Made by a program: the position numbers and the translations under genes | Shown: positions 8,997 through 46,100 of the stretch, one piece after another | Layout of the letters: the number at the start of each line of letters is the position of its first letter | Position numbering within the stretch: the stretch's first letter is position 1 | NCBI GenBank assembly: GCA_024679065.1 | Contig: JAGIQG010000025.1 | Location: 19,344,001-19,408,000, forward strand | DNA from: Sphyrna mokarran | Lineage: Eukaryota | DNA: 64,000 nucleotides | Direction of reading: 5' to 3' | Notes under the pieces: generated by a model | Told to the model about the DNA's origin: nothing | Databases searched by the model: none | The model's input: the letters and a program-made list of their open reading frames with translations, nothing else

Positions 8997-9161
8997 TGAT
9001 GTAGAGATGCCAGCGTTGGACTGGGGTAAACTCAGTAAAGTCTGGCAACACCAATTTTAAATCCAACCGATTTATTTGATAGTAAATCTGCAAGCTTTTC
9101 GCCCTTTGTGGCCTTCGTCAGGCCAGGTTGGATTTAAAATTGGTGTTGCCAGACTTTACTG
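8997..9161 (-). mobile_element. Penelope-derived fold-back mini-element containing a hammerhead motif
   Basis: Homologous to the Penelope terminus at 43050-43180; perfect 36-bp inverted repeat 9033-9068/9126-9161; TSD ggatg(t/a)aaaagtca 8983-8996/9161-9174. Confidence 0.85.
9088..9126 (-). ncRNA. Minimal type I hammerhead ribozyme motif
   Basis: Minus strand ctggc-CTGACGA-ag-gcc acaaag ggc-GAAAa-gc-TT-gcag. Confidence 0.6.
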
Positions 9162-12028: not shown

Positions 12029-12124
12029 CGACTGTGTGACTATGTGTGTGACTTACTTTTGGAAGAGTCTAATGTTCAACCAGTGTCTACACCAGTAACT
12101 GTCTGTGGGGACATACATGGGCAG
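12029..12124 (+). CDS. PPP6C: PPP6C exon 2
   Basis: ttttag|[32 protein letters not shown]|gtgagt; contains GDIHG. Confidence 0.98.
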
Positions 12125-12948
12125 GTGAGTTTATTTTCTATTTTAAAGAACAGTTACTTCAGGCTAACAATTACCAATTTCAGAAATCTATAGCTAACTC
12201 CTCCTAACTAACGCCTAAAATTGCATTAGCTGCTAACTTTGGGACTGTAAGTGGATTATTCCTATCTCATGGCTGTCTAATTGGTGCAAATTAGTGTGAA
12301 TTTCTTAAGTTGGGTTGAGTTTTTTGTATGTAACTTTTTTCTCTAAACCTGTCTGTGCTGTTTTGTATTCATCAAGGTGGACATTTTGGTGCTTGGGAAT
12401 GGAACATTTTTCTATTTTTTGGGTATCATATTCACCTAAGCCATCAATGTGTCATGTTTGCCCTACAGTTATCATTTTGACTGAGGTTGTTGATTTGAGG
12501 GGTATTTTGTGTTTTATTACACATTTTCACTCCTCTCATCCCATCAGTCTCAAATAGATTTGAACATGGATACAAAATCCTAGTATATTACCTACCAAAC
12601 AATGAGTAATTCAAATGACATTCTCCATTTCCATATGACCAAATGATATTGCTCAATGTGGTTTTTTCCTGGCATCCTGACATAAATATCACTTGCAGCC
12701 AGTTGGGTTACTGCTATGAATCTCTAATTCTCTTATCCACATTTAAAAATTTACTTTGGAGGCTGAATTGTACAGAAATTCTGTATGTTGCATCACATGA
12801 AAGAAAACATTTTTAAGTTCAGTAATTTGGGTATAGGACAAGCGGGTTGAGGCTATTCAAATATCATGTTTCCTATACAGTGATTTTTGCATTAGATTTT
12901 ATGTTTGTAATGTACAAAATGTTCACTGGATTTTAAATTATTTTACAG

Positions 12949-13014
12949 TTCTATGACTTGGGTGAGCTGTTCAGGACTGGAGGTCCAGTTCCTGACACAA
13001 ATTATATTTTTATG
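12949..13014 (+). CDS. PPP6C: PPP6C exon 3
   Basis: ttacag|[22 protein letters not shown]|gtaagt. Confidence 0.98.
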
Positions 13015-13488
13015 GTAAGTAATTGTTTAAAACTATATACTATAAATTCTTTGAATTTTAAAAATATTTCTTTCATTAAAGTTCAGTTGTAAGTTTGAAA
13101 CCTGACTATCTGGTCTTGGCACTTAATATTGCTTTGATATCTCAAATTGACAGAAGTATTTTGTAAACCAATTTATGAAAATAAGAGGAATTTGGTACTA
13201 TTTATTAAGAATATTTTAGATGTGCACCTAAACCATTAAAAATGAATATAGGAACTATATTGTTAGGTTTAATACTTGAGGTTTGTATATTGATTGTAGA
13301 TTTACATAGATGCACAAGAAAGCTGCTTGCTAATACCACGTATAGCATTTAAAGATTGCAGGAATAGATTGGACTGAAAAGTAGCAATTTTTTCTAATGT
13401 TATATAAGCATAAATATTTTGTTTTGCATCATATTTAATTACATGTTTTTTTAAATTGTCTGTCATACTAACCTAATTTTGTTAACAG

Positions 13489-13630
13489 GGTGACTTTGTG
13501 GACAGAGGGTATTATAGTCTTGAAACTTTTACCTACCTCCTTGCATTGAAGGCAAAATGGCCTGATCGCATCACACTTCTCAGAGGAAATCATGAAAGCA
13601 GGCAAATCACTCAAGTCTACGGGTTCTATG
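13489..13630 (+). CDS. PPP6C: PPP6C exon 4
   Basis: aacag|[10 protein letters not shown]...[17 protein letters not shown]|gtaatt; GDFVDRG and GNHE motifs; TACTAAC branch point 13466-13472. Confidence 0.98.
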
Positions 13631-13752
13631 GTAATTTGAGTGGGTTTTAAGTTCTTTTGAAAACTAGCTTATCTGGGGGAAAATAAGGATTTCTTGATCA
13701 AATTCTAGTCTTTTGAGTGGTCAGAAAAACTAAACATAATTTGTTTTAACAG

Positions 13753-13832
13753 ATGAGTGCCAAACTAAGTATGGAAATGCTAATGCTTGGCGGTACTGTA
13801 CCAAAGTCTTCGACATGCTTACAGTAGCAGCT
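13753..13832 (+). CDS. PPP6C: PPP6C exon 5
   Basis: aacag|(D)[26 protein letters not shown]|gtaagt. Confidence 0.98.
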
Positions 13833-14384
13833 GTAAGTAAATATTTATGTTGAAAAGTTCTGTGAAGTATTTGGATGTATTCTACTAAAATTGGATTTTG
13901 AGCAGTTAACAGCCCCTATACCAAAGAATTGTTACAATTTGAGAACTTCATGGTAGTAAAAAGAAACTCGGTTTGGCAAGTGCAACCTCACTCCTTTAAT
14001 GATCTGGTCATAAAATATTCTCTCTACATGGGAGTAACTTGTGTTTAGGAGAGCAGTATCTATAGCCTGTGTTAAGGAGAAAATACCTTTTCAGTAAAAC
14101 TTAGAAGCCCCTCCAGTGGGCAGAAGATACTAGCTGGCTTCTGTAGATTCAACAAACACTGTTCTCACTGAGCACTAACCCCCATGAATGCATTTTCAAG
14201 GGTGAGTGATCAGAGTAGATGTTAAGTACGCACATTGAAAAAAATATCACCTGGTAACTGCAACACTTATTTGAGATTTTTGAGATCAAAGGACATAAGT
14301 TTTGATCAGAATACCATAATCTATATTAATCAACTTTAAAAATGTAGATGTGCAAAAATTGATCGTAATTCAAGTCTCCTGTAT

Positions 14385-15416
14385 CATAGAGTCAGAACCA
14401 TATAGCGCAGAAGAGAACATTTGACCCATCAAGTCCTCACCAACACATTGGAGACATCTGATCTCACATATAGCAGTACTTGATCCATAGCCCTGAATGT
14501 TATGATGTGCCAAGTGCTCATCCATATATCTTTTAAAGGATGTGAGGCAACCCATCTCTAACACCCTCCAAGGCAGCACATTCTAGAATCCTACCACCCT
14601 CTGAGTTTAAAAAAGTTTTCTTCACATCGCCCTAAACCTCCTGCCCCTCACCTTGAACCTATAGTGGTTCACACTGCTGCCTCATAGCACCAGGGATCCA
14701 GGTTCAGTTCCCGGCTTAGTTCACTGTTAATGCAATGTTTGTGTTCTCCCCACGTTTGCATGGGTTTCCTCTGGGTGCTCCAGCTTCCTCCCACAATCCA
14801 GAAGCTGTACTAATTAAGTGCATTGGCCGTGCTAAATTGCCCCTCCACAGATACCAGAGTGTAGTGATTAGGGACTTTCACAGTAACTTCATTGCAGTGT
14901 TAATGTAAACCTACTTGTGATAACAAACTTTGTCTCCTCTGACTGAACCTTCAACTAAGGGGAACAGTTGCTCCTTATCTATCTATCCATGTCTCTCATA
15001 AGCTTATACAACTCACTCAGGTCACCCCTCAGTCTTCCCTGCTCCAACAAAGATAATGTTGTGGTTGGTCTTGACAGCATGGATGGCATTGCATTGTGCT
15101 TGGGTGATGTTTGGGGCTGTCTTGAGTGTGGTTGATGAATCTGGTGTTAATGCACCTCCTGATGGCTTGGGCACACGTCCAGTTGAGGGCAATGGCCTTC
15201 CGGAGGAGTCCACTTTGACCCTTTCCTCTTTGGTTGCTGCACTGCAGTTCCCTCTGTCAGTTTGTCGTCAAAGATAACCCAAGTATATCCAATCTTCCTT
15301 TGTAACTTGATGCTGCCCGGGATGGAGCATTTCTGCAGAATCTCTACTGCATCCCCTCCAGTGCAAAAACATCCTTCCAATTAATATGGCATTCAACTGT
15401 ACACAGTACTCCTGCT
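14385..15416 (-). mobile_element. CR1 LINE 3' part, interrupted by a V-SINE (about 14663-14930) and a Penelope fragment (about 15053-15273)
   Basis: CR1 tail and 'FKRYMDEHL' on -; V core at 14740-14795; PLE motif NITQAQCNAIHAVKTNHNII. Confidence 0.7.
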
Positions 15417-17359
15417 GTGGTCTCTTCCTTGGACACAGGTGAGGTCCCAGAGGACTGGAGAATAGCTAATGTTGTACCGTTGTTTAAAAAGGGTAGTAGG
15501 GATAACCCTGGAAATTATAGGCCGGTGAGTTTGACGTCAGTGGTAGGGAAGCTGTTGGAGGGGATCCTTAGAGATAGGATGTATAGGCACTTAGAGCGTT
15601 GCGATCTGATTAGGGATACGCAGCATGGATTTGTTAAGGGGAGGTCGTGCCTTACAAATCTGGTAGAATTTTTTGAGGAGGTGACGAAAACGGTGGACGA
15701 AGGGCGAGCCGTTGATGTCGTCTATATGGATTTCAGTAAGGTGTTTGACAAAGTCCCTCATGGGAGGTTAGTTGAGAAGGTCAAGGCTCATGGGATACAA
15801 GGACAAGTAGCTAGATGGATAAGTAACTGGCTTGGTAATAGGAGACAGAGTAATAGTGGAAGGATGTTTCTCTAGCTGGAGGTCGGTCACTAGTGGTGTG
15901 CCGCAGGGCTCGGTACTGGGACCTCTTCTATTTGTAATATATATAAATGACTTGGAAGAGGGAGTAAGTGGAGTGATCAGCAAGTTTGCAGACGATACAA
16001 AGATGGCTGGACTTGCGGATAGTGAGGAGCATTGTCAGGCGATGCAGCAGGACATAGATAGGCTGGTAGCTTGGGCAGACAGATGGCAGATGGAATTCAA
16101 TCCTGATAAATGTGAGGTGATGCATTTCGGGAGAAAGAATGTAGGGGGGAGGTATATGATAAAGGGTAGACCTATTAAGAGTATAGAAACGCAGAGGGAC
16201 CTGGGGGTGCAGGTGAACAAGTCTCTGAAGGTGGCAGAGCAAGTGGAGAAGGTTGTGAAGAAAGCATACAGTATGCTAGCCTTTATAGGAAGGGGTATAG
16301 AGTACAAGAGCTGGCCTTTAATATTGCAGTTGTATAAAACGCTGGTTAGACCTCATTTGGAATACTGCGTCCAATTCTGGTCGCCTTACTACCGGAAGGA
16401 CGTGGAGACTCTGGAGAGAGTGCAGAGGAGGTTTACCAGGATGCTGCCTGGTATGGAAGGTCTGAGTTACATTAGGAGAGATTAGGCAAATTGGGAGTTT
16501 GAATTGTTTTCCTTAGAAATTGTTTTCCTTAGAAAGACGTAGACTTAGAGGAGATCTAATAGAGGTGTACAAGATTTTGAAGGGGATAGAGTAAACAGGG
16601 CTAAGCTTTTTCCTAGGATGGACTCAAATAGCACAAGGGGTCACGGGCTTAGGGTGAGGGGGGTAAGGTATTATTTGTATTCTAGGGGGAGTTGTTTCAC
16701 ACAGAGGGTGGTGGGGGTATGGAATGTGCTGCCAAGTAAAGTGGTGGAGGCAGGTACTCTGGAAATATTTAAGGAATACTTAGATGGGCACATGAACAGA
16801 ATGGGAATGGAGAGGTATAAAAAACTGATTTAAAATAGGGATCGTGAGCCTTGGGAGTCCCTGGGAAGTGTGTAAATAGATGATGATATTGATGTACTTG
16901 TTTTTATCCTACAGTTGCTTTGGTCCACCTTGTTGTCTAACGAGGGGCATACACGCAATGGGTCGTGAGAGGACTGCTCTTGGATCTTTTGAGAGTATCC
17001 TACTGCTTCACGTCGTTAGTGTATGCTTGACCTGCACCATCTGATGGGTAACACGACAGCTCAGTGACTATCGCTGTGCAGATACATGGATTTGGGCCTT
17101 TGTCTGTGGGAGTTTGCGCATTCTGCCTGTGCTTGCGTGGGTTTTCTCTGGGTGCTCCGGTTTCCTCCCACATCCCAAAGATGTGCTCTTGGGTTAATTG
17201 GCAAAACAAATTCTCCCTAAATTGTCTCAAATTTGGTTTTTAATCCATAGATCTATAAACATGGACAGGGATCGCGGGTAGAGGTGGGAACATTGGGGTG
17301 GTGGCGTGGGCTCGTTGGACCGAAGGGCCTGTTTCCTGTGCTGTTTTGTTCTTTGTTCT
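15417..17359 (+). mobile_element. Young 5'-truncated CR1 LINE (RT with few frameshifts) with an extended 3' UTR containing a V-SINE-derived segment
   Basis: ORFs 15417-15875, 15832-16485 and 16618-16833 (PEDWRIANV, NYRPVSLTS, GVPQGSVLGP, KFADD); the CR1-type tail appears only at 17310-17359. Confidence 0.9.
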
Positions 17360-17374
17360 TTATATTCCAAGTTT

Positions 17375-18115
17375 TTCAGGGTTAAATTCTGCCCATTTGA
17401 TCATTCCATCTATATCTCTATTAACCACCCAGCCAATCTTTCTGTCATCTGCAAACTTAGTAATCTTACCCCCCCCCTCCTGCCGCCACCTCCCCACATT
17501 ATCATCAATGCCCCTTATATAAATGACGATAAGGGGACCGACAATCCTTGCAGAATGCCACTGGCTTCTAGTCATTAAAGCAGTCTTCTATCATATTCTG
17601 TCTCCCATAACTGAGCCAATTTTGAATCCATTTTATCAAATTCCCTGTATCCTATTATGAAATTAACTTCTTTACAATTCCCCATGTGGAACTTTTGTTG
17701 AAGGCTTTGCTGAAGTTCATATAAACTACAGTGACTCATGTACACACTTAGTCACCACCTCAAATTCAATTAAGTTTTTTGAGTGTGCCTCCCCTTAAGA
17801 AGCCATGCTAACTATCGCTAATCAAGCTTTGCCCCTCCATATAGAGATAGATGCTCTCCTTTAGAAGCTTCTGTGATAGTTTCCCTACCACTGATGTGAG
17901 ATTCACTAGTCTTTCGTTCCCTGGTTTATCTCCTACAACTCTTCTTAAATAACAGAACCGTGTAAGCTGTTCTTCAGTCGTCTGGCACACCCATGACCAG
18001 AGAGGAATTGAAAATTTTGAGTCGGAGTCCCTGCAATTTCTCTTGCCTCCTAGAGTGCTTGGAGCACAATTCATCTAGACCTGGAGATTTATCTATTGTA
18101 AGGTTGCCAGCATCT
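17375..18115 (-). mobile_element. Continuation of the old minus-strand CR1
   Basis: KITKFADDRKIG and DKPGNERLVNLTSVVGKL on -. Confidence 0.75.
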
Positions 18116-18866
18116 CCAATACCTTGTCCTTCCTTATGTCAGTTTGCTTAGGAACCTCACTGCCTCAGTCAAAGAACAGTCCTTCAATTCCATACCATCA
18201 TCCTTATTCTTGAATGAAAATGGATTTGCTCTTTGCCTGGGTGCGCATGTGCAGTACTGGCCACTGTGCTGCTCCATTACCCAGAGGGTTAACTACAATT
18301 GGGTTCCTGATTGTAGTTATCCTCTATTTCTGAAATCTTCCCTGGTTCTCCTAAGGTCCTCAGTCTTACCATTGGCACATTCCCGATCATTCTTGGGTCT
18401 TTTGTGTTTTTGGGCCATTTCTCCACATTAAAGATTCTGTGTAAATGCATGTTGCTTTTGACATAAACTCTGGAGACTTAAAATACATGTGTTGTGTGAT
18501 TTTTGAAAATGCAGCTTTAGCATGGTTAAGTAAATGAATGCTGTTAAAATTGTAGGTTGAAGGGAAATGATACATCCCAAAAAAGGTGCTAATTCCAGTT
18601 CTGTATATGAATATGTATTTGTGCATGTGGGAACCAATTAAAATGTGAATTTGGCATCACAAAAGTCAGGGGTTGGGGAGGATTTGAAGCAGAAGATGTG
18701 GAACTCTGGGGAGTATGGGATCAGTAGGAATAGTTTTGGATTTCTTAGGTTTCCTTGTCTTTCAGTTTATTTAGTTTTAGAGTTAATATATGCCAGCAAT
18801 AATTTCTACTCAGTATTTTTATAGGGCATTTAATTATAAAAACAATTTATATTTTTGTAATATCAG

Positions 18867-19076
18867 TTGATAGATGAACAGATCTTGTGTGTGCATGGTG
18901 GACTTTCTCCTGATATCAAAACTCTCGATCAAATCCGAACCATTGAGCGTAACCAGGAAATCCCACACAAAGGAGCCTTCTGTGACCTCGTATGGTCTGA
19001 TCCTGAGGATGTCGATACTTGGGCCATCAGTCCTCGAGGAGCAGGTTGGCTCTTCGGAGCAAAAGTTACAAATGAG
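18867..19076 (+). CDS. PPP6C: PPP6C exon 6
   Basis: tatcag|[16 protein letters not shown]...[16 protein letters not shown]|gtaaat. Confidence 0.98.
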
Positions 19077-19254
19077 GTAAATTGTCAACTCTAGACTTCA
19101 AAAGAACTTGAATTTTGGGAGTTTGAGGGAAAACTTTTTTTTAAAAAGAAGTTTGTTAATTGTTATGCTTAATTTTGATAATCAGATTATTCTGATCAAA
19201 TCGTGGATTCATACTTAATCAGTTTTCCACATTTTTCTCTCCCATATATTTGCC

Positions 19255-19780
19255 ACAGAAATAAGTCATTCAGCCCAACCAAACTATGGTGGTATTTATG
19301 CTCCACTCGAGCCTTATCCCATCATTCCTCATCTAAATTTGGTGTCATAGTCTTCTGGTTTTTTTTCCTCCCACATATGCCTGTCCAGCTTCCCCTTAAA
19401 TATGTTTATGCTATTTGCTTCAACTATCTTGCTCTAGTAGCAAGTTCCACATTCTAATAGCTTTTAGGAAGTCAAGAGACACTCTTGTCCACTGTTGGAT
19501 TTCTTGGTGACAATCTTGTATCTCTAGTTATGCTGTTTCACATGAGTGGAATCATTCTCTAAACCCTCTATCAAACCTTTTCATTATTTTAAAGACTTCA
19601 ATTAGGTTGCCTGTCAGCATTATTTCAACAACGATCTAGTTTTAGATTTTTCTGGTATCATTTTGTCTGCACCCTCTCCACTGTTTCAAATCCTTTTAAT
19701 ATTATGATGACCAGAACTCTACACAGTAGTTCAAGTGTGGTCTAAACAAGATTTGATACACATTTAGCCTAACTTTTCTA
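19255..19780 (-). mobile_element. Old CR1 3' fragment in PPP6C intron 6
   Basis: Reverse-complement remnants of CR1 'RPHLNYCVEFWS' and 3' UTR. Confidence 0.6.
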
Positions 19781-20294
19781 TGAAGTGTTTTTATGACCTG
19801 GTTGTGTACAATATTAGGAGATAGGCCCATTGTCTGGAGAAAGTAATCTTGATTTGTATGACAGAAGTGTCAGGTATTAATAGATTTATCTCTAATAGAG
19901 ACATATTCAGGAGGACGGAGATTTATTTTTATTTTCTTTCCTCTGGTTTTATCATTTTTTTCCTGTCCTCAAACTTAGTATGCCAGAAATAAATTGAACT
20001 GAACTTTATTATTGCTCTGGCTGAGAGGTTGACTCAACACAAGCTGGAGATTAGACTTCATGGTCTTGGTATAATGGCTTTTTGTTTTTTTTGGAAAATG
20101 TTATGACTTTGCCTTTCCTCTCCTTCAAAATGAGTTGGTGCAATATGCACCATAAAGATGTTGATAGCGTTGCATGTTCAGAGTACAGTATAATTCAGAA
20201 ATGGAACACTAAGTGGCGCTCTGCTCCTCAACTTTGGTATTCAGCCTAGGCATTTCCTTCATGCAGTTTTTTAAAAATTCTTTTTGTTTTGTAG

Positions 20295-20543
20295 TTTGTT
20301 CACATCAACAACCTGAAACTAATCTGCCGAGCGCATCAGCTAGTTCACGAAGGATATAAATTCATGTTTGATGAGAAGTTGGTGACTGTATGGTCTGCTC
20401 CTAACTATTGTTACCGTTGTGGAAATATTGCATCAATCATGGTCTTCAACAACGTGAACTCAAGGGAGCCAAAATTATTTCGTGCGGTTCCAGATTCAGA
20501 GCGTGTAATTCCACCAAGAACAACAACACCTTATTTCCTTTAA
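20295..20543 (+). CDS. PPP6C: PPP6C exon 7 (last coding exon)
   Basis: ttgtag|[15 protein letters not shown]...[11 protein letters not shown]...RTTTPYFL*; total CDS 918 nt = 305 aa; RAHQ, SAPNY and C-terminal YFL motifs. Confidence 0.98.
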
Positions 20544-28705: not shown

Positions 28706-30782
28706 TTTAACTTTATGTACTCTATGAATGGCATGTTTTGTCTCACAATGTGTAAGAAACAATACTTTTCACTGTATCCCAATACATGTGACAATAATAA
28801 ATCAAATCCTCTTCCCTATCATCAGCTGGTCATTAACTAAGGCCTCTCTCTGTATGAACTATTTTTCATCTCTCTCTATGAACTATTTTTCATCTCTCTC
28901 TGTTTCGCTCTCAACCATTTTCAGTCTACTCCGTGATTGTTTACTGTGTGAGCTACTCTTTAAGGAGTTTCCTTGTTCAAAAAAAAGTGGCTAAAGCTAA
29001 TCACTCTAACTACAGGCCAGTCAATTTAACTTCAGTGGTGGCAACTTTCTAGAAACAATAATTCAGAACACAATTAATAGTCACATGGACAAATGCAGGT
29101 TAAATAAAAAGCAGTATGATTTTCTTTAGGGAAAAGTTCAACTAACTTGCTCAAGTTTTTGAAGGGATAACAAAAAGGTTGATGAAGGTGAAGCTATTAT
29201 TATAGTGTACATGGACTTCCACAAGGTGTTTGATAAAATGCCACACAACAGCCTTGTGAGAAAAGTTCCAGCTCATGAAATAAAAGGAACTGTAGCAATG
29301 TCAATATGGAATTGACTAAGTGATGAGAAACAAATAGGAGTTGGTAATAGATTTTATTTGGGCTGGAGGAGGTTTTATGGTGGTGTTCCCAAGAGTTCAG
29401 TATTGTAACTGTTTTTTTTTTATGTATATTAATGACATAGATTTTGATGCACAGGACACAATTTCAAAGTTTGCAGATAATTTGGAAGCATTGCGAACTG
29501 TGAGAATAACAGTGATGAACTCCAAAAGGGCAGACGTGTTGGTGGAATAGGTGAACAGATTGCAGATGAAGTTCAATTCAGAGAAACATGAAGTGATTAA
29601 TTTTGGTAGGAGAAGTGATATAAACTAAATGGGGCAACTCCCTAAAAGGTGTACAGGGAATGTTTATGTATCTCAAAACATAAGAAATAGAGGGAGGAGG
29701 CAACCTAGCCCCTCGAGCCTGTCTTGCCATTCAATACAATCTGATCTGGTAGTGGTTCAGTTCCACTTATCCACCTGGTCCCCATGACCCTTACTTCCCT
29801 TATTGATCAGAAATCTAACCATCTGTGACTTAAACATATTTAATGAGGTAGCCTCCGCTGCTTTAATGGGCAGAGAATTCCAAAGATTCACTACCCTCTG
29901 AGAGAGATTCCTCCTCAACTCTGTTCTATGTTGACTGCCCATTATTTTGAGACTGTGCCCTCTACTTGTTTCCTTTCTAAGTGGGAATAATCTCTCTGTC
30001 TCTACCCTGTGTAGCCCCTTCGTTATCTTATATATCTCAATAAGATGTCCCCTCAGCCTTCAAAACTCCAATGAGTACAGGCCTAATCTACTCAATCTCT
30101 TCTCATAAGCTAACCCCGTCATCTCTGATATCAACTTGGTGAACCTTCTCTGCACTTCCTCCCAGGCCAAAAAAATCATTTCGCAAATAAGGTAACCAAA
30201 ATTGCACACAGTACTCTAGCTGTGGCCTCACAAGTACCTTGTACGATTATAGCAAGACCTCCCTGCTTTTATACTCCATTCCCCTCGTGAGAAAGACCAA
30301 CATTCCATTTGCCTTCTTGATCATCTGCAAACTGAGCTTTTGTGATTCATGCACAAGGACCCCCAGGTCCAGCATGGTGTAATTTTTCACCATTTAAATA
30401 ATAGTCCATTTTACTATTATTCCTTCCAAAGTGGATAACCTCACACTTGCCAATGTTATACTCTGTCTGCCAGATCCTTGCCCGCTCACTTAGCCTATCC
30501 AAATCTCTCTGTAGACTTTCCGCATCCTCCACGCAATTCACTTTCCCACTCATCTTCGTGTCATCAGCAAACTTTGTTACCCTACACTTAGTTCCCTCCT
30601 CCAGATCGTCAACATATATGGTAAACAGTTGAGGCCCCAGCACCAATCCCTGCAGCACACCACTAGTCACCAACTGCCAACTGGAAAAGCATCCATTTAT
30701 TCCAACTCTCTGCTTCCTGTTAGATACAGTAAGAAGTCTGGCAACACCAGGTTAAAGTCCAATCAGTTTATTTGATAGTAAT

Positions 30783-30825
30783 CCCACAAGCTTTCGGAAA
30801 CGGTGTTCCTTTGTCAGGTGTGTGG
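30783..30825 (-). ncRNA. Hammerhead motif with core mutation (CTGACAA)
   Basis: Minus strand cac-CTGACAA-aggaacaccgtttcc-GAAA-gc-TT-gtggg; G8>A relative to the 34575 copy. Confidence 0.55.
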
Positions 30826-31224
30826 AAGGTTCTGATCAGAGAAGGGCATATAAAGTCACACACTGTTTACAGAATACTGATTAGAATGCAAGTCTTTACA
30901 ATTAACTTGCTATTCAAGTCTGAAAGATGCAGACAATGTGAATGGGGATAGCATTGGCATAGGTTACAGAGATGTGCACTGTCTCCAGACAGGACAGTAA
31001 GTGAGATTTTACAAGCCCTGGCAAGTCCTAGAGCTTACATATAGTGCGACATAAACCCAAGATCCCAGTTGAGGCCATCCTTATGTGTGTGGAACTTGGC
31101 TATCAGTCTCTGCTCAACGACTCTGCGCTGTCATGTGTTGTGAAGGCCGCCTTGGAGAACACTTACCCAAAGATCAGAGACCAAATGCCTGTAACCACTG
31201 AAATGGTCACATTTCACATTTGAA

Positions 31225-32563
31225 ATGGGCAAAGTATTGGAGAGAATTATTAGGGATAGGATTTATAGTTATTTAGAGAGAAATGAATTGATTGGGGATA
31301 GTCAGCATGGTTTTGTGAAGGGTAGGTCGTGCCTTACTAACCTTATAGAGTTTTTTGAAAAAGTGACCAAAGAGGTGGATGGGGGTAAGGCGGTTGATGT
31401 GGTATATATGGACTTTAGTAAGGCGTTCGATAAGGTGGCCCATGGAAGGCTTCTGCAGAAAATGCAGATGTATGGGATAGAGGGTGATTTAGCTAATTGG
31501 ATTAGGAATTGGCTAGCAGATAGAAGACAGAGGGTGGTGGTTGATGGGAGATATTCATCGTGGAGTTCGGTTACAAGTGGTGTACCTCAGGGGTCTGTTT
31601 TGGGGCCCCTGCTGTTTGTAATTTTTATAAATGATCTGGATGAGGGTATTGAAGGATGGATTAGTAAATTTGCAGATGACACTAAAGTCGGTGGAGTGGT
31701 AGATAGTGAAGAGGGGTGTTATAGTTTGCAGAGAGACTTGGACAAGTTGCAGAGCTGGGCCGAGAGGTGGCAAATGGAGTTTAATGTGGAAAAGTGTGAG
31801 GTAATTCACTTTGGCAGGAATAACAAATGTGTAGAGTATAGGGCTAATGGTAGGATTCTTAATAGTGTTGATGAACAGAGGGATCTTGGTGTATATGTGC
31901 ATAGATCCCTGAAAGTAGGCAGTCAAGTCGATAAGGTTGTTAAGAAGGCATATGGAGTCTTAGCTTTTATTGGTAGGGGGATTGAATTTCGGAGCCGCAA
32001 CGTCATGTTGCAACTGTACAAAACTCTAGTGCGGCCGCACTTGGAGTATTGTGTGCAGTTCTGGTCCCCACATTATAAGAAAGATGTGGAGGCATTGGAG
32101 AGGGTACAGAGGAGGTTTACCAGGATGTTGCCTGGTATGGAGGGCAGGTCTTATGAAGAGAGGCTGAGGGATTTGAGGTTGTTTTCGTTAGAAAGAAGGC
32201 GGCTAAGAGGAGACCTTATTGAAACATATAAGATGATTAGAGGTTTAGATAGGGTGGACAGTGATAGCCTTTTTCCTAGGATGGAGAAAGCTAGCACGAG
32301 GGGACATAGTTTTAAGTTGAGGTGTGGTAGTTATAGGATGGATATCAGAGGTAGGTTCTTTACCCAAAGGTTGGTTAAAGTATGGAATGCCCTGCCTGCA
32401 GCACTTGTAGATGCGCCAAGTTTGGTGGCGTTTAAGAGGTTAGTAGATAAGTTTATGGACGAAAAGGGAATGGTTTAGTTTGGAGGGTCATGGCTTTTTC
32501 CTAATTGGTCGGCGCAACATCGAAGGCCGAAGGGCCTGTTCTGCGCTGTAATGTTCAATGTTC
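31225..32563 (+). mobile_element. Very young 5'-truncated CR1 LINE with an uninterrupted 417-aa RT C-terminal ORF
   Basis: ORF 31225-32478 without stops or frameshifts (QHGF, SCLTNL, GVPQGSVLGP, KFADD); tail aggccgaagggcctgttctgcgctgta(atgttca)(atgttc). Confidence 0.95.
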
Positions 32564-34574
32564 GCCAACAGGAAGGGAATGGTCTTGCCTGGTGATTGTT
32601 GAGTGACATTCATTCATCCGTTGTCGTAGTGTCTGCCTGGTCTCTCCAATGTACCATGCTTTGCGATATCCTTTCCTGCAGCGTATTTGGTAAACAAGTT
32701 GGCCGAGTTGCAAGAGTATGTGCCATGTACCTAGTGGATGGTGTTCTCACGTGAGATGATGTCATCCACGTCGATAATCTGGCATGTCTTGCAGAGGTTG
32801 CTGTGGCAAGGTTGTGTGGTGTTGTGGTCACTGTTCTCCTGAAGGCTGGGTAGTTTGCTGCGAACAACAGTGTGTTTGAGGTTGTGTGGTTGTTTGATGG
32901 CAAGAAGTGGGGGTGTGGGGATGACCCTGGCGAGATGTTCGTCTTCATCAATGGCGTGTTGAAGACTCTGGAGAAGATGTCGTAGCTTCACCACTCCAGA
33001 GAAGATGTCGTAGCTTCACCGCTCCGGAGAAGTACTGGACGACGAAGAGTAGTCTGTCCACTGTGTCCCACAGTGCAGAGGTCAGTGTGATTTTTCTCTG
33101 TGGCGCATCGAAACTGTAAAATGATGAGTCGAGCGCCATATCCTGTTCTTGTGAGAGCATCTTTCAGCATCTGGAGGTGTCTGTTGTAATCCTCCTCGTC
33201 TGAGCAGATCCTGTGTGTACGGAACGCTTGTCCATAGGGGATGGCTCCTTTAACATGTTTAGGGTGGAAGCTGGACAAGTGGAACATTGTGAGGTTATCT
33301 GTGGGCTTGTGATACAGTGAGATGATGAAGTGACTGTGCTTGATGAAGATGTATGTGTCGAAGAATGTCACCAATTCCAGAGAATAGTCCATGGTGAGTC
33401 TGATGGTGGGATGGAACTTGTTGGCGTCATTATATAGTTATTTCAGTGATTGTTCATCAATCAAGGATGGTCATTTCAGCACCTCATTGTACCGCAAGCC
33501 CACAAATAACATCACAATGCTCCATTTCTCCAGCTTCCACCCTAAACACATTAAAGAAGCCATCCCTTATGGACAAGCCCTCCATATACACAGGATCTGC
33601 TCAGATGAGGAGGATCGTGACAGACATCTCCAGACGCTGAAAGATGCCCTCATAAGAACAGGATATGCGCTAAACTCATTGATCGACAGTTCCAACGCGC
33701 CACAGTGAAAAATCGCACCAACTTCCTCAGAAGACAAACACAGAACACAGTGGACTGACAGATACCCTTCATTGTCCAATTCTTCCCCAGAGCAGAGAAG
33801 CTATGACATCTTCTCCGGAGTATTGAACACTTCATTAATGAAGATGAGCATCTCACCAGAGCTATCCCCACACCCTACTTCGTGCCTTCAAACAACTACA
33901 CAACCTCAAACAGACTGTTGTTTGCAGCAAACTACCCAGCCTTCAGGAGAACAGTGACCACAACACCACACAATCCAGACACAGCAACCTCTGCAAGACA
34001 TGCCGGATTATTAACATGGATGACATCATCTCACGTGAGAACACCATCCACCAGGTACACGGCACATACTCTTGCAACTCGGCCAACATTGTCTACCTGA
34101 TACGTTGCAGGAAAGGATGTCCCAAAGCATGATACATTGGAGAGACCATGCAGACGCTATGACAATGGATGAATGAACATCGCTTCCTGTTGGGGAACAC
34201 TTCAGTGGTCATGGGCAGTTGGCCTCTGGCCTTCGGTTAAGCGTTCTCCAAGGCGGTCTTTACGACGCATGGCACAGAATCGTTGAGCAGAGACTGATAG
34301 CCAAGTTCCACACACATGAGGATGGCCTCAACCAGAATCTTGGGTTCATTTTGCACTATCTGTAACCCCCATGACTTGCTTGGGCTTGTAAAATCTCAGT
34401 TACTGTCCTGTCTGGAGACAATACACATCTCTGTAACCTATGCTAATGCTGTCTCCACTCACATTGTCTATATCTTTAAGACTTGAATAGCAAGTTAGCT
34501 GTGAAGACTTGCATTCTAATCAGTATTTTGTAAACTGTGTGTGACTTTATATGCCCATCTTTGATCAGAACCCT

Positions 34575-34617
34575 CCACACACCTGACGAAGGAACACCAT
34601 TTCCGAAAGCTTGTGGG
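34575..34617 (+). ncRNA. Minimal type I hammerhead ribozyme in the Penelope pLTR
   Basis: cac-CTGACGA-a-GGAA caccat TTCC-GAAA-gc-TT-gtg; stem I CAC/GTG, stem II GGAA/TTCC, palindromic AAGCTT stem III. Confidence 0.75.
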
Positions 34618-35609
34618 ATTACTATCAAATAAACTGGTTGGACTTTAACTTATTACTGTGTTTACCACAGTCCAAAGCAGCATCTCTACATCATGACTGC
34701 ATCCTGTTAGATAGCCAATCCTCAATCCATGCTAACACTTTACCCCCAACTCTATGTACCTTAATCTTTTGCAGCAACCTTTTGTGAGGCACCTTATCCA
34801 ACACCTTCTGGAAGCCAAGGTGTTGGATAAAAACACCACATCTATTGGTTCCCCTCTGTCAACTGCACTCGTTACATCTTCATAAAAATCTAGTAAATTT
34901 GTCAAACATGACTGTAAGTCAGTTCATATGACAGGACAGGTTGAGAGAGTGATTAATAAAGCATGCAGTATAATCGACACAGGGGCACATAGAGTATAAA
35001 AGCAAGGAGGATTTATTTGACCTTGTGTAATTCACTAGTTTGGCCTCAGCATTGTATCCAATTCGGGGGACAATACTTTCGGAAGGATGTGAAGGTATTA
35101 GAGAAGGGGCAGAAAAGATTCATGAGAATTCCAGCAATGAGGAAATTCAGACATGAAAATAGACGGGAAAGTAAGAACTGTTTTCCATGGAGAAAAGTAG
35201 GTTGAGAGGATATCTAATAGAGGTGTTCAAAATCATGAGAGATCTGGTCAGGGTAGATGGAGAGAAACTGTTCCTACTCGTAAAAGGATCAAGATGAAAA
35301 AACACAGATTTAAAGTAATTAGTGATGTAAATAAAAACTTGTTCACACAATGGACGGTTGGAGTGATGATGAAGGCAGCTTCAATTGAAACATTCAAAAA
35401 GGAATTAGACTGTTATCTGAAAAGGAAGAATGTGCAGGATAATGAAGCGAAAGCTGAGAAATGGAACTAAGTGAGTTGGTCAATCAGAGAACTAGTGCTG
35501 ACATGATAGGTCTTCCTTCTATGCTAGAACAATTCTGTAATTCCAAATAAAGTTCAAAATACTCCCCCTTCTCTTACAAAGGAAATTAACATGCATATAA
35601 AGAAATTAA

Positions 35610-36144: not shown

Positions 36145-37135
36145 TAGGCTTACATTTATATAGTGCCTTTCATTGTCTTACATCCTAAGCATGTTACAGC
36201 TAATGGAGCACTTTTTGAAGTGTAACCACTTGTCCTAATGCAGGAAGCACAAAAATTTGCACACAGTGAGTGCCACAAAGAGCAGTGTGAGGTAAAGCAA
36301 TATTGATAAATATTGGCGAGGATAATGGGGATAACACTAAGATAAAAGCAAATTAATGTGGATACTGGAATCTGAAACAAATACAAAAAATGCTGAAAAA
36401 CCTCAGCAGCTCTGACAATATCTTGGAGAGATAATGCGTGTAGTGAATGATTTGATTTGATTTATTGTTGTCACATATATTGGGATATAATGAAAGGTAT
36501 TTTTTCTTGCGCTCTAGACAGACAAGATGTGGAGATGCAGGCTTTGGACTGGGGTGGACCCAGTAAGAAATCTCTTAACTCTAGGTTAAAGTCCAATAGG
36601 TTTATTTGGAATCACAAGCACTATTCCTTCATCAGGTCAGTCATGATGAAGGAACAGTGTTCTGAAAGCTCGTGATTCCAAATCAACCCATTGGACTTTA
36701 ACCTGGTGTGATGAGACTTTTTACTCTATTCATATTATTTAGAGTACATAGGGGAGAAGGTAAGCAGAGGATGCAGAATATAATGTTACAGTCACAGCTG
36801 ATAAAGATCAGCTTAATATAAGATAGGTTCATTCAAAAGTCTGATAGCAGCAGGGAAGAAGCTGTTCTTGAGCTTGATGACCACTGTTCTCCACAAATGC
36901 TGTCAGATCTGCTGAAATTTTCCAGCATTTTCTTTAACGCCGGTAACAGCCTTGGCTCTTGAAATAGTGCTTTTGGATCTTTTTTACCTGACAGACAGGG
37001 CCTCAGTATTAACAAGACGGCACCCTCGACAATAGCGCTCTCTCCAGCAACGAACTGGAGTGTTAGCCTACAGATGTTCGTGCTCAAGCCTCTCGACTGA
37101 GATTTGGACCCGTGACCCCCTAATTCAGAGAGCTA
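36145..37135 (-). mobile_element. Deu-domain SINE interrupted by several short inserts (Rex/Babar-like end, Penelope termini)
   Basis: SINE tail at 36145-36340 and head at 36940-37135; inserts include (tgatt)n tail at 36447-36465. Confidence 0.55.
36526..36725. mobile_element. Penelope pLTR fold-back mini-element with degenerate hammerhead (36642-36674)
   Basis: Inverted arms 36562-36635/36644-36725; catgatgaaggaacagtgttctgaaagctcgtg. Confidence 0.75.
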
Positions 37136-37479
37136 TGGCTGGTGCAAATATAAGGACTAAAATTCTTGTAAATGTAAGTGGAATTCTGTCCTCCTCTCTT
37201 TCCCTTTGTTGGGAAAATGGAAACTTGGAAAGGTGCCAGTTTTTTTGTACGCTGTCAGTGTAGTGTTGGAGAGAGTAGGGAATTTCAGTTTGGGGGTGGG
37301 GGGGAGTTCGTTCATCCATGATGATGGCTGCATTGACTTTCTGCGTTAACCACTCTGCAAATTACAAAGTGTGCGGGGTGGAAAAAAGAATAATTTTTCG
37401 CCGATCTTGGCAAGGCGCTAAAAAAGATGGTGTGAACACTAAATAAATAATAGACGATTTTGGCATTTTAAAGAACCCA

Positions 37480-38170
37480 TCGCTCGCAACTCAGCAGCAG
37501 CGCATCGCCAGGCGCTCCCCGACTGGCTGAATGTGGCCAAGCGCGCTGTATTCTAGCCCTATTCCGGGGGGCCAACCGAACTTGATCGGCCCTCTTACCA
37601 CCCACCTTCGGTGGCATCATTTTATTGACGTCGATAGAAACCAGTGGAAGGAGAGTATGTCTGACAGTGGGCGGGGCCTATCGGCGAGAAAGAACCAATG
37701 CGGGACGGCCGGACATGGTGACTGGGAGGTGGGATTTTGTCGGCGGCGCCTGGAAGCCAGTGTGTGAGCCGCGCGCCGAGTCAAAGGCGGCGGGGGCCGG
37801 CTCAGAGCGGATGGTGGTTAGTTTTCTAAGGTACGGCGGCCGCCCATGGCGTTGAGGAGCCAAACGATATAAACCGACGGCGGCGGAAGATCCCAGCCAT
37901 CGGTGAGCGGGTGAAACTTAAAAAAAAACCGGGAAGAGTAAGGATCCGAGCCCGTAAATAAAGGGGGGGGGGGGGAAATCGGATGAGATCGGTGTGCGTG
38001 TGTGTGTGAGGATAACGGGAGGGATAACGGGAGGGATAACGGTCGTCGGTGCGAGAGGCTTCCTGTTTTCAAAGGCTTTGGCCGTCCCCCCCCCCCCCCG
38101 CTTCTTTCCCGAGTTAAGCTGAGTCTCCGGGAGGATTCACGACAGTAAAGTGGGGGGGTGGGGGGGGAGG
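37480..38170 (+). promoter_or_regulatory. CpG-island promoter and first exon region, probably SCAI
   Basis: CpG-rich; CRE-like tgacgtcg 37626-37633, GC box 37669-37676, CCAAT 37695-37699, G/C tracts downstream; SCAI follows PPP6C on the same strand in human (synteny inference). Confidence 0.75.
37811..37830 (+). CDS. SCAI: Putative first coding micro-exon of SCAI (MVVSFL[R])
   Basis: gagcggATGG context, donor AAG|GTACGG in phase 2; human SCAI starts MV and, from memory, its first exons end in phase 2. No downstream SCAI exon was found in the window. Confidence 0.45.
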
Positions 38171-41300: not shown

Positions 41301-41974
41301 TATAAGAACACAATGTTTAGAATATTTCTATCACATTTTGAGATTTAAAAATTTATATTGACCCAGATTTTTCATCTTCTGAATGATAAGAGACTGGATG
41401 TACCCTAAAAGATGTGTCATGGCACCCCCACCCCCAAGGTTCCAATATAAGAACTCCGTGGAGGAAGTTTGAACTTCCGCTGGAGAATTTCCCTGCTCCT
41501 GAGAATGCTCCGAAGAGTTTCCAAATCTGAATTAGATTTGAAGACTTCAAATGGTTCTGGCTTAGTTACTTGGAAAGTTATCAGGTAATGTTAGGCAGAA
41601 AAATCATAGTCTGAGTTCTGGATAACGACAACCGATATGCCAATTGCTCACAGTAACTTCCCTGACACAACCCAACTAATTCCCATCACTTGAGTCACCA
41701 CCTCTCCCCAAATGCAACCTGACCCATCTTTGACCTGGCCAATGTTTTTGACGTGACTCCTGCGACCCTACTTGTGCTGCTACTCTGCCCACTTACTTTG
41801 TCAACCCTACTCTCTTATCCACTCTCTCACTTCATCCACTTAGTTACTCGCTGTAGCTTTTCAAAGAAGTTTTGGAGCATTTGTGCTCTATTTACCAGAG
41901 TATGGTAGCTAGTGTTGTAAAAAGGGATGTGCCTAAGAAACTGTTCCATTTTGAGTATACTCTGCATTTCTGGT

Positions 41975-43178
41975 GGAAGCTCCAGCTTCCACCCTAGACA
42001 CGTTAAAGAAGCCATTCCATATGGACAAGCCCTCTGTATACACAGAATTTGCTCAGATGAGGAGGATCGTGACAGACACCTCCAGATGCTGAGAACAGGA
42101 TATGGCGCTCGACTCATCGATCGACAGTTCCGATGTGCCACAGCGATAAACCGCACTGACTTCCTCGGAAGACGAACACAGGACACGGTGGGCAGAGTAC
42201 CCTTTGTTGTCCAGTACTTCCCCGGAGCGGAGAAGCTACGACATCTTCTCCGGAGTCTTCAACATATCATTGATGACGATGAATATCTTGCTAGGGCCAT
42301 CCCTACCCCCCCACTTCTTGCTTTCAGACAACCGCACAACCTCAAACAGATCATTGTTCGCAGCAAACTACTGAACCTTCAGGAGAACAGTGACCACAAT
42401 ACCACACAACCCTGCCTCAGCAACCTCTGCAAGACATGCCAGATCATAGACATGGATGACATCGTCAAACGTGAGGATACCGTTCACCAGGTACACGGTA
42501 CATACTCTTGCAACTCGGCCAACGTTGTCTACCTAATACGTTGCAAGAAAGGATGTCCCGAAGCATGGTATATTGGGGAGACCATGCAGACACTACGACA
42601 GCGGATGAACGAGCATCGCTCAACAATCACCAGGCAAAACAGTTCCCTTCCTGTGGGCGAACACTTCAGCAGTCACGGGCATTCGGCCTCCGACCTTCGG
42701 GTAAATGTTCTTCAAGGGGGCTTTCGTGACACACGACAGCGCAGAGTAGCTGAGCAGAGACTGATAGCCAAGTTCTGCACACATGAAGACGGTCTTAATA
42801 GGGATCTTGGCTTCACGTCACACTATCTGTAACCCCCGTAACTTGCCTGGATTAGCAAACAACCTCACTTACTGTGCTGTCTGGAGAAAATACACATTTC
42901 TCTAACCAATGCTCAGGATTCCCTTCACACACATTGTTAGCCACTTTAACACTTGAATAGCAGGTTAGATATAAGGATTCACATTCTAATCAGCAATCTG
43001 TGACTGTCTGTGTTGATATGTGTGCTATTGCAGACCAGAACATGGCATTTGCCTGACGAAGACAGAAAGTTGAAAGCTCACAAATTTACTATCAAATAAA
43101 TCGGTTGGATTTAAAATTGGTGTTGCTAGATTCTTACTGAGTTCTTACTACCCCAGTTCAACGCCGGCATCTCTACAT
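41975..43178 (+). mobile_element. Young 5'-truncated Penelope-like element with an intact GIY-YIG endonuclease C-terminus
   Basis: ORF to 42832 with CxxxxCKTC...H, VVYLIRC...YIGET...RMNEHR...GLN; TSD catttctggt 41965-41974/43179-43188. Confidence 0.92.
43048..43084 (+). ncRNA. Minimal type I hammerhead ribozyme in the Penelope pLTR
   Basis: tttgc-CTGACGA-a-GAC agaaa GTT-GAAA-gc-TC-acaaa. Confidence 0.65.
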
Positions 43179-46100
43179 CATTTCTGGTTAAGCCAGGACT
43201 AGAAGTCCTGGCAGAAATATGGACTATCCTTAGAAAAATAGGAGCAGCGTGGCAATCCGATGGTGATTTCCACTCCTTGGAAAATACAATCCACTTAGTT
43301 TAAGTCAACATTGTTTTGTAAATCAAACCATAGTAGTCAACAGATTTTAATGCACACTGTTAATAGGCATTGCTTTTCAAATATAAGTCTGCACTCAACA
43401 TTATCTGACTTTCCTAACGTTTTGGTATATTTTATACAAACAACTTTTCTAAATATGCTATTTGTAACCAAATTAACAATTACTTGTTAATAGGATTATA
43501 GTGACTTTTATTTGTTGGACAGCGCATTGCATTACATTACAGAAATTAGGTTCATACAATTACATTCCATTTTCTTATGCACGGTTAGGGCATCTCTTTT
43601 TTTTTCCCCACACACACTGATGTAACAAGTGTGACTTAGCTGGGGGGATTGTCATTGCCAATATTTTCTCTGATTTTTGAATGATAATATTCAAAGGAAT
43701 TCCTATTATTTCAATTGAATTAAAATATCTGAAGCTGTACTGATCTCAAGATGAATTTTTTTTTTGAGTCATGAAATAATGACTGACACAATGAATGTAT
43801 CACAGTTTGGTGGGTGACCTTTTAACGCTGAACTATAATTGCATAGGTATACATTTGGTGGCTTGAACAACAAGTTTGTTATGGAAAATGTGGAGAGTTT
43901 TAACAATTTGTTTGTTTTGAAGATTTGTCAGAATTACATGATTGATTTCCAAAGAAGTAAGCTTTTTTAAAATTCTTGTTCATTTGATCATATTTACATT
44001 TGTTTCCAACATAACAGTTTTAAGTGTCAAATTTTTGAAATAAAAACTCTTCCCTTCATACCTTTTCTGAAAAGAATTTCAACTTTTATAAAGAATTGAG
44101 TGAGCCAGTGTATTTGTATATTTCATTTCTAATGTAATGTGAATAATTTGTGTATTTACTTTCAACAACAAAAGTGTGCAAAAAATTGAACTTGGACAGT
44201 AAGCATTTAAAAGCAATTTGAAGTACACTTCAGTAACCATGGCGAGTATTGCCTGTAATTTGTAATACATTCCAGAGTTGATAGTATAGTATTTGATTGT
44301 GGCTAAAAAAATGCATTTTGTCAAAAGTTGCGCTTTTGTCTTGCACTTATCAGGACAATCTCAAAATACCAGTGTCAGAGGAAGCAATTTTATATTGTGT
44401 GAGAAGAAAATGCTGGTTGGCAATTGGACTCTGAGTACGGGTGTTGCCATGGGGAGTGCACAGTTAATGGTGACTGGTATTAACTGTCAGGCATTGTGAG
44501 AAAATTTAAGCCAGGCAGCTTGATCGTAGCTGGTGAAGGCATTGCCTTGAGGAATGAATCAGTGAATGGCTATTACTTATTTTGTTTAGTTGAAACATGT
44601 ACGCAGTATTGCGCCTATTTCAGTTAAACAAAATAAGATGATGCATTGACCAATCAGAGTCAAGGTATCTGGATTAAGTTTTCAATCAATGTTTCGAGCA
44701 GAAACCAAATTTATATTTTTTTCAGCAAAATTCACATTCCAGCAGATCAGAATTGAATTTTTAACAAAAATGCTTTATGTTTAGTTTACCCTTGGTGTTG
44801 CAAATTATTCTGAAGTGAACAAAGCAGTGAAGACTAATATTGTACAACATGAATAACAAATCAAAATCTTTCTTGCATGCCAATTTGGCTGTTTGAACAG
44901 CATAATTGAGGAATAGCATTATTGTATATTGGCATTGGACAGCTGAATTCATGTTATATCGGTATCTGATGTGCTTTAAGAGATGTATGGCATCCATTTG
45001 GTGTTTGACCCTAATAGAATTTGACATTAATTCATTGTGTATCTTGATGAATGCAATCTAATGTAAAAAAATATGAGGGAAAAATCTGAACAACAATCAA
45101 CATTCAGTGGAGAGAACAGATAATTATAATATTTGAAATGTAGATTCTTCATCACTCCAGATTTTTGCTAATCAGCTAAGTGTTTCCAGCTTTTTTGATT
45201 TTATTTCTAATGCAAATATGATTTTGCTTTACAGTTTCACCCTCCCCAACCAGAACATTAGCCACAAACCTAAAATTAGGATTTATTTTCGAAGAATCTT
45301 TCCAGAAATATTTCCAATTAATTGGCAGTTAAGATTAGCATAAGTAATCTTAAAGCAACTATTATATTTAAAAGTTCTTTACAGTAAAAATATGATTTTC
45401 ATTTATGTGAAATGTTTGACTTGGTGTATAATTACAAGAATTCAATGGAAATTCAGTATTCAACATCTTGGGAGTTGAGCTGTAACTGATGTGTCAGTAA
45501 TGAACCTCTGGATTAGTACCTAGGGGGTTGATGAAGTGTAATTGAAGTGTCGGTAATATAACATTGATCTCTCTTTTTTTTATCCTGATGATTTATTGGA
45601 CAAAAAAACTGCCGCGTAGAAGAACTGGGTCACCAATTCTACTCCTGAATTGGACTGAGTTGGCTGATGGTAACAGTGAAAGTAGATCTTGTTCTCCTTT
45701 AATTAATAAAGGGATACTTTTGTTAAAGTTCCTGCTCCTGAATGCTCTTCATATCTCTTCCCTTGCTTCCATCTGTATTTTCATGTTGGGTGTTGAGTTG
45801 ATTGGGTGAAATATTGTCCACAGTTGAAAACCCTTCCAATATATGAGGGACTCGTATATTAGCATTAGATAATGAATGACGGGTGGGATTCATGATCCTA
45901 AACCACAGTTTAAAAAAAAGCCTCACCTGCAAGAGAGAAGTTAAAAACAAAAATATACAAAGTTAGATGTATGATGACTGAAATTGAGTTATTTCTATGA
46001 AACATAATTTTAGCAACAGTAACTGCTCATATAACAAACATTAAATTGCCTTACTATAAGAGCTTAAAAGCTGAAGAATGTGTATTTTGTAACATAGATC

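Follow-up and report, generated by a model that had tools for sequence, protein, structure and literature searches.

The window analysed here, i.e., a stretch of 64,000 nt of the Sphyrna mokarran genome (contig JAGIQG010000025.1, positions 19,344,001 to 19,408,000), contains, at positions 12029-20540 of the plus strand, exons of a gene for the catalytic subunit of a PPP-family phosphatase, as well as a CpG-rich stretch near 4 kb. We assume that this gene is likely PPP6C. A CpG island spans 37450-38100. It includes a splice donor near 37830 as well as motifs of the CCAAT, GC-box and CRE-like types, and probably represents the promoter of the next gene together with its first exon. Moreover, the window holds four insertions (A, B, C, and D) of a Penelope-like element (PLE), which carry the five copies of a hammerhead motif named in the first-pass annotation, i.e., 9088(-), 30783(-), 34575(+), 36642(+), and 43048(+). 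From the copy at 34575 it is about 14 kb back to the phosphatase stop codon and about 2.9 kb onward to the CpG island; its site is therefore probably intergenic.

Insertions of the element and the encoded protein

Insertion A (8997-9161, minus strand) is a solo pseudo-LTR (pLTR) fragment, localized antisense within an intron of the phosphatase gene, before the exon at 12029. It starts 2-4 nt before C3 (9121) of its hammerhead, has an extra A in GAAA, a 36-nt inverted arm (9126-9161) and a target duplication of 13-15 bp. Insertion B is composed of two arms, i.e., an inverted, tail-less left arm (30727-33437, minus strand), carrying the hammerhead at 30783 with a G8A change, and a right arm (33454-34696, plus strand) being a 5'-truncated PLE that is 76% homologous to 41980-43181. 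The right arm comprises a decayed thumb-linker-GIY-YIG frame (to about 34365), a 3' pLTR with the hammerhead and a tail. Both arms, which differ at 37 of 378 sites, are enclosed by a single 17-bp target duplication (30710-30726 and 34697-34713, plus strand, the left copy with one mismatch); the copies at 30783 and 34575 are therefore arms of one insertion and not independent. Insertion B splits an older LINE-type copy (30064-30726 and 34697-34913), and its left arm was later split by a LINE RT fragment (about 31209-32558) with a 427-codon open frame, which we take to be CR1-like.

Insertion C (36519-36725, both strands) consists of two pLTR fragments arranged head to head with 8 nt of spacer between them, and its flanks show no clear target duplication. 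Insertion D (41975-43178, plus strand) is again a 5'-truncated PLE, with an open thumb-CX4CXXC-GIY-YIG frame to 42832 followed by a 3' pLTR. Its exact 10-bp target duplication (41965-41974 and 43179-43188) overlaps the tail end by a few bases; among about 396 random flank pairs the longest match was 14 bp, and matches of at least 10 bp occurred in 15 pairs. If the CpG island at 37450-38100 begins the next gene, insertion D would sit in an intron of that gene, on the sense strand.

The 3' ends of the arms are placed either 54-61 or 84-99 nt past the predicted cut site of the hammerhead (the arm of the 34575 copy has a 15-nt gap there), and two such ends about 35-40 nt apart are a PLE tail signature. 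The other hallmarks of PLE insertion, as defined in the available text of PMC8557442, were also found, namely 5' truncation, an inverted 5'-truncated arm and a tail confined to one end. Each of the three short pLTR arms bearing the core (9121-9125(-) and 36635-36644) starts 0-4 nt from C3, and none starts at the cut site. Pairwise identities (85-89% within pairs and 66-79% between them) divide the copies into three subfamilies, which agrees with the earlier statement that at least three shark subfamilies are represented.

In both insertions B and D, the hammerhead is localized about 220 nt 3' of the stop codon of the GIY-YIG ORF. The frame 41921-42829 encodes a GIY-YIG domain (PF01541, E=1.3e-4, with a score at the curated cut-off) with the invariant Y-x-G-x-T and H residues, whereas stops and frameshifts interrupt the frame that precedes 34575. 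The best homologues of the protein come from sharks (77-82% identity among the top matches). The RT core has been truncated off in the window copies; PF00078 is present in close homologues, and the start of the 5' ORF was not found within the window. Before the endonuclease, there is a CX4CXXC linker (C165, C170, and C173 of the 41921 frame). According to the available text of PMC8557442, a CX2-5CXXC linker between RT and EN marks Neptune and is common also to Nematis. Judging from its predicted protein, the shark element is thus a PLE with a Neptune/Nematis-type linker. The position of the motif downstream of a GIY-YIG ORF whose nearest protein relatives are shark ones bears out its initial identification as a PLE minimal type I hammerhead.

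The hammerhead at 34575 and the other copies of the window

The intact minimal type I hammerhead occupies 34580-34615 of the plus strand and was recognized by reading of the sequence, by a descriptor and by an nhmmer profile. The core CUGANGA...GAAA...UH runs in type I order (34583-34612). Stem I is formed by CAC (34580-34582) and GTG (34613-34615), i.e., 3 bp, and is followed by CTGACGA (34583-34589) and by A34590, the extra base after the core that had been noticed before. This A is the single base that stays unpaired between 9 and 10.1. Stem II consists of 4 bp (GGAA/TTCC, 34591-34594/34601-34604) closed by a 6-nt loop, with G34591-C34604 as the pair G10.1-C11.1. GAAA (34605-34608), GC and TT follow, helix III is reduced to the palindrome AGCT (34608-34611), and the cut is predicted after 34612 (CUU). 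With the core, the extra A, both stems and AGCT in place, the motif is as complete as it was originally described.

A strict descriptor (core, stem II of at least 4 bp, stem I of at least 3 bp and a 2-nt palindrome) gave one match in the window, at 34575, and none in 200 dinucleotide shuffles, while a loose sequence pattern gave six matches against a shuffle mean of 2.31, and two of 100 shuffles reached six. The latter excess is just 2.6-fold, the Rfam scan of the window gave no matches to hammerhead families at the gathering threshold, and the fold z-scores are unremarkable (-1.56 to +0.61), all of which might speak for a chance resemblance, or for a pLTR signal conserved merely as DNA or as protein-coding sequence. 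Such an explanation is hardly credible to us when set against the strict descriptor, against the two-sided changes observed among relatives that were found without using the motif (see below) and against the agreement with the published PLE consensus.

The nhmmer profile built from the copies recovered seven stretches of the window, i.e., the five named copies, an inverted twin of 36642 and the 36-nt arm near 9088. Homologous copies of the core are thus present at all five places given in the first-pass annotation, but they are not five independent ones and only that at 34575 is intact (1/5): all 36 motif positions are retained there, and the other four are damaged. The copy at 30783(-), with C3 at 30817 and H17 at 30788, carries G8A at a CpG. 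It had been put forward as a negative control, for which it is still usable, although the change reflects ordinary decay at a CpG in the arm twinned with that of 34575. The copy at 36642(+) is homologous, but it cannot count as a core in the strict sense: it reads ATGATGA, so C3 is missing, its stem I keeps only 1 bp in register, and G.U occupies 10.1-11.1. In the inverted twin, both GAAA and the 3' strand of stem II are missing.

The copy at 9088(-) reads GAAAA-GC-TT, with an extra A, and in the family register the second pair of its stem II is a G.G mismatch. Its stem I has only 2 bp; the CTG/CAG pairing assigned to it previously is out of register and uses C9126 of the inverted arm, and has to be abandoned. 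The hammerhead of insertion D (43047-43085, plus strand, delimited by the nhmmer alignment) has an intact core and a 3-bp stem II, with G.U at 10.1-11.1. The TTTG/CAAA proposed as its stem I does pair, but the closing pair by the cut site is a C x A mismatch. The reduction of stem III to AGCT applies to four of the five window copies, the exception being 9088 with its extra A.

Covariation with distant relatives and decay of inserted copies

When only the five window copies were considered, 78.8% of 33 cells were paired (11/500 shuffles as high), the covariation score was 0.314 (4/500) and two-sided changes were found in three of seven pairs (45/500). This covariation is modest and within what relatedness alone can give.

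Using protein alignment alone, eight loci with relatives of the element were found in metagenome contigs. In three of the eight, a minimal hammerhead is present downstream, with other stems and with AGCT, ATATAT or ACGT as palindromes; those with ATATAT and ACGT (L010:1201-1235 and L013:1072-1098, respectively) lie downstream of distant PLE ORFs, and the core of L013 is CCGAGGA (U4C). No motif was found in the 334-839 nt downstream of three weaker protein matches (L012, L014, and L015), and two other loci end 112-117 nt downstream. For the eight sequences and five pairs, 82.5% of 40 cells pair, the score is 0.629 and there are nine two-sided cells, values of which neither the score nor the number of two-sided cells was reached in any of 500 shuffles; the count took in just the first two pairs of stem II, and this alignment places 9088 and L010 out of register. 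As the structure was read from the same sequences, this is support and not proof. The stem covariation reported earlier is therefore clearer once the three relatives are included (0/500 shuffles), but marginal on the window copies alone.

Sequence-pattern scans of viral and prokaryote contigs yielded 209 loci, none of which is a family member; L173 and L143 matched the searched pattern only. None of the 27 candidates from a protein scan of viral contigs was confirmed. An nhmmer search over all 217 fetched loci indicated the protein-found locus L009 as the sole full-length match. In L009, 54-67% identical to the shark copies in this region, a tentative 8-bp stem downstream of the hammerhead is kept (1030-1082). 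In the window this possible stem extends over 34637-34677 of the plus strand (also 43102-43162), with its 3' arm in the PLE tail, and across five sequences it shows only G.U-type one-sided changes and no compensatory ones.

Decay of the inserted copies was assessed on contigs from four of 21 listed runs, aligned over 34440-34720, with variant rates taken from depth-weighted contigs under an 80% identity filter and among the variants listed. The search for runs yielded none from the host that is made up of raw reads or is confirmed as RNA, X1 and X2 being only presumed RNA runs. Among these variants, G8>A accounts for 6.5-22% of depth and G12>A and C11.1>T for 10-15% each, and C>T at the loop CpG accounts for 8-23% in the same contigs. 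The listed motif variants are all at CpG, except for one stem I change in two contigs of X2, and the common non-CpG variants among those listed are in loop II and outside the first three stem I pairs. For X17, none of 26 non-CpG sites varies within the motif versus 23 of 149 outside it (p=0.019, among the variants listed), a difference that is lost if two of the seven unlisted variant sites fall inside the motif. The contigs over 34440-34720 show no pile-up of ends, and contigs cannot show RNA ends. A rise in depth over 34590-34620 was considered as a trace of 5' ends at the cut and rejected, since divergent stem II loops explain it equally well.

As G8 and G12 decay at the CpG rate, like the loop CpG, selection is likely to act on mobile source elements and not on insertions. 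The motif is thus likely to be kept in mobile lineages, with neutral decay after insertion. The claim that the ribozyme has been held under selection may be upheld for those lineages, in view of the three of eight relatives that have it, but does not extend to the inserted copies, four of five of which are damaged and which decay at the CpG rate.

Predicted activity and comparison with known systems

The reading which we favour with considerable confidence is that 34575 is a minimal hammerhead in the 3' pLTR of a shark PLE, likely inert and simply carried along in an old 5'-truncated insertion. Tandem transcripts of the source element would carry two hammerheads, whose AGCU palindromes would pair into helix III; each of the paired hammerheads would then cleave after CUU, at a slow rate and probably with the aid of the protein that the element encodes. 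RT likely starts on RNA that is still uncut, at two sites about 60 and 95 nt 3' of the cut site, and for this reason every insertion would copy the hammerhead. Inserted copies would subsequently decay neutrally, purifying selection being exerted only via the spread of source elements.

We infer dimer or protein-assisted cleavage in the shark source element from other PLEs. In the available text of PMC4209133, two motifs on one RNA pair their palindromes into helix III, and monomers are uncut while dimers are cut weakly. For the anole element, the accessible part of PMC11167929 reports that cleavage needs protein, that RNA-seq ends at the cleavage site were not found and that two 3' ends are tied to two RT start sites. 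Why PLEs retain poorly active hammerheads is presented as an open question in the portions of PMC8557442 and PMC11167929 at hand.

Cleavage at 34575 itself seems unlikely, because there is no helix III for a monomer and no intact same-strand partner nearby (the nearest same-strand copies, 2 kb and 8.5 kb away, are both damaged), and because the antisense twin pairs with it. Any plus-strand RNA reading through the site would also include the antisense arm, which is 90% complementary, and the predicted duplex energy is -98.8 kcal/mol. In the predicted lowest-energy fold of 34575, helix I is slipped by two bases and U17 is paired. The active monomer has -5.3 versus -9.4 kcal/mol for the MFE structure, and the dimer -9.7 versus -21.7 kcal/mol; core tertiary contacts are ignored in these energies, which are no more than suggestive.

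The same features bear on the idea that the host has kept 34575 as a working ribozyme, e.g., one that terminates read-through RNA in the interval separating the phosphatase gene from the next promoter. It is true that this sole intact copy of the five lies on the strand of the upstream gene, in the interval between its stop codon and the CpG island; however, 36 unmutated positions are not improbable at a decay of about 5% per arm, helix III and the loop contacts needed for monomer activity are lacking, and the antisense twin would sequester the motif. We regard such a host function as very improbable.

Another proposal is that in this family the main role of the hammerhead fold, together with the downstream stem, is that of a landmark for protein binding or RT and not that of a cutter, so that short copies stop or fold back at the core. 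The starts of the core-bearing short arms (3/3 within 0-4 nt of C3) are in line with it, as is the lack of a start at the cut among the seven nhmmer matches; moreover, all elements run 54-99 nt past the cut site and, according to the available part of PMC11167929, the anole hammerhead is dispensable for insertion in vitro, its mutants being without effect. However, the three arms come from only two insertions, the same ends would be expected if transcription started, or a splice site lay, just upstream, the downstream stem shows no compensatory change, and the catalytic core kept in distant relatives is not needed for a landmark. On balance, we consider this proposal unlikely, and the same low probability is given to its extension, in which RT would start at two sites round the stem and stop or fold back at the core, giving rise to a short non-autonomous element beginning there and not at the cut.

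The preferred reading, a PLE hammerhead carried along passively, places the motif within a known class. As far as the available text of the 2014 study (Cervera and De la Pena 2014, PMC4209133) describes them, the minimal hammerheads of metazoan PLE pLTRs have the same type I layout (CUGANGA with an extra base), G10.1-C11.1, a short helix I and a palindromic 15.2-16.2, follow the RT-EN ORF and form many families per genome; their Fig. S4A also shows a second copy lying on the other strand. In their Chrysemys picta example, GC/UU and, downstream, CAAAUAAA are common to the shark motif. Unlike the motifs of that study, the shark ones have a stem II of 4-5 bp. All sequence features listed in the first-pass annotation are already in the 2014 consensus, to the extent that it is given in the text seen, and the dimer model and the minimal class are likewise already in print. 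No shark is named in the available text and readable supplement of PMC4209133, and a literature search outside subscription papers found no description of the shark PLE hammerhead motif, the one review retrieved mentioning the shark solely on account of the name. The preprint bioRxiv 10.64898/2026.07.22.740005 mentions hammerhead retrozymes and PLEs in the sole Chondrichthyes genome sampled, and its supplements may list this family.

The animal non-LTR retrozymes described in the same preprint likewise contain type I hammerheads, derived from PLE pLTRs, but in its available text these elements are arranged as head-to-tail tandem repeats, every unit of which has its own hammerhead, whereas the shark copies are dispersed, solo or inverted. 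A retrozyme, which needs at least two consecutive tandem units with a complete hammerhead, was accordingly rejected as an identity of these copies. Poseidon of Anolis carolinensis (Frangieh et al. 2024, PMC11167929) resembles the shark element, in the portion of the paper at hand, in having a hammerhead within the pLTR, insertions that keep it uncut, and two 3' ends bounding a 30-40-bp tail; it differs in that the shark element has the CX4CXXC linker, which marks Neptune/Nematis rather than Poseidon. With respect to these systems, the finding adds one more shark family to a known class and changes nothing in principle, but the very many copies in three subfamilies would allow mapping of ends and the separation of source-level selection from post-insertion decay.
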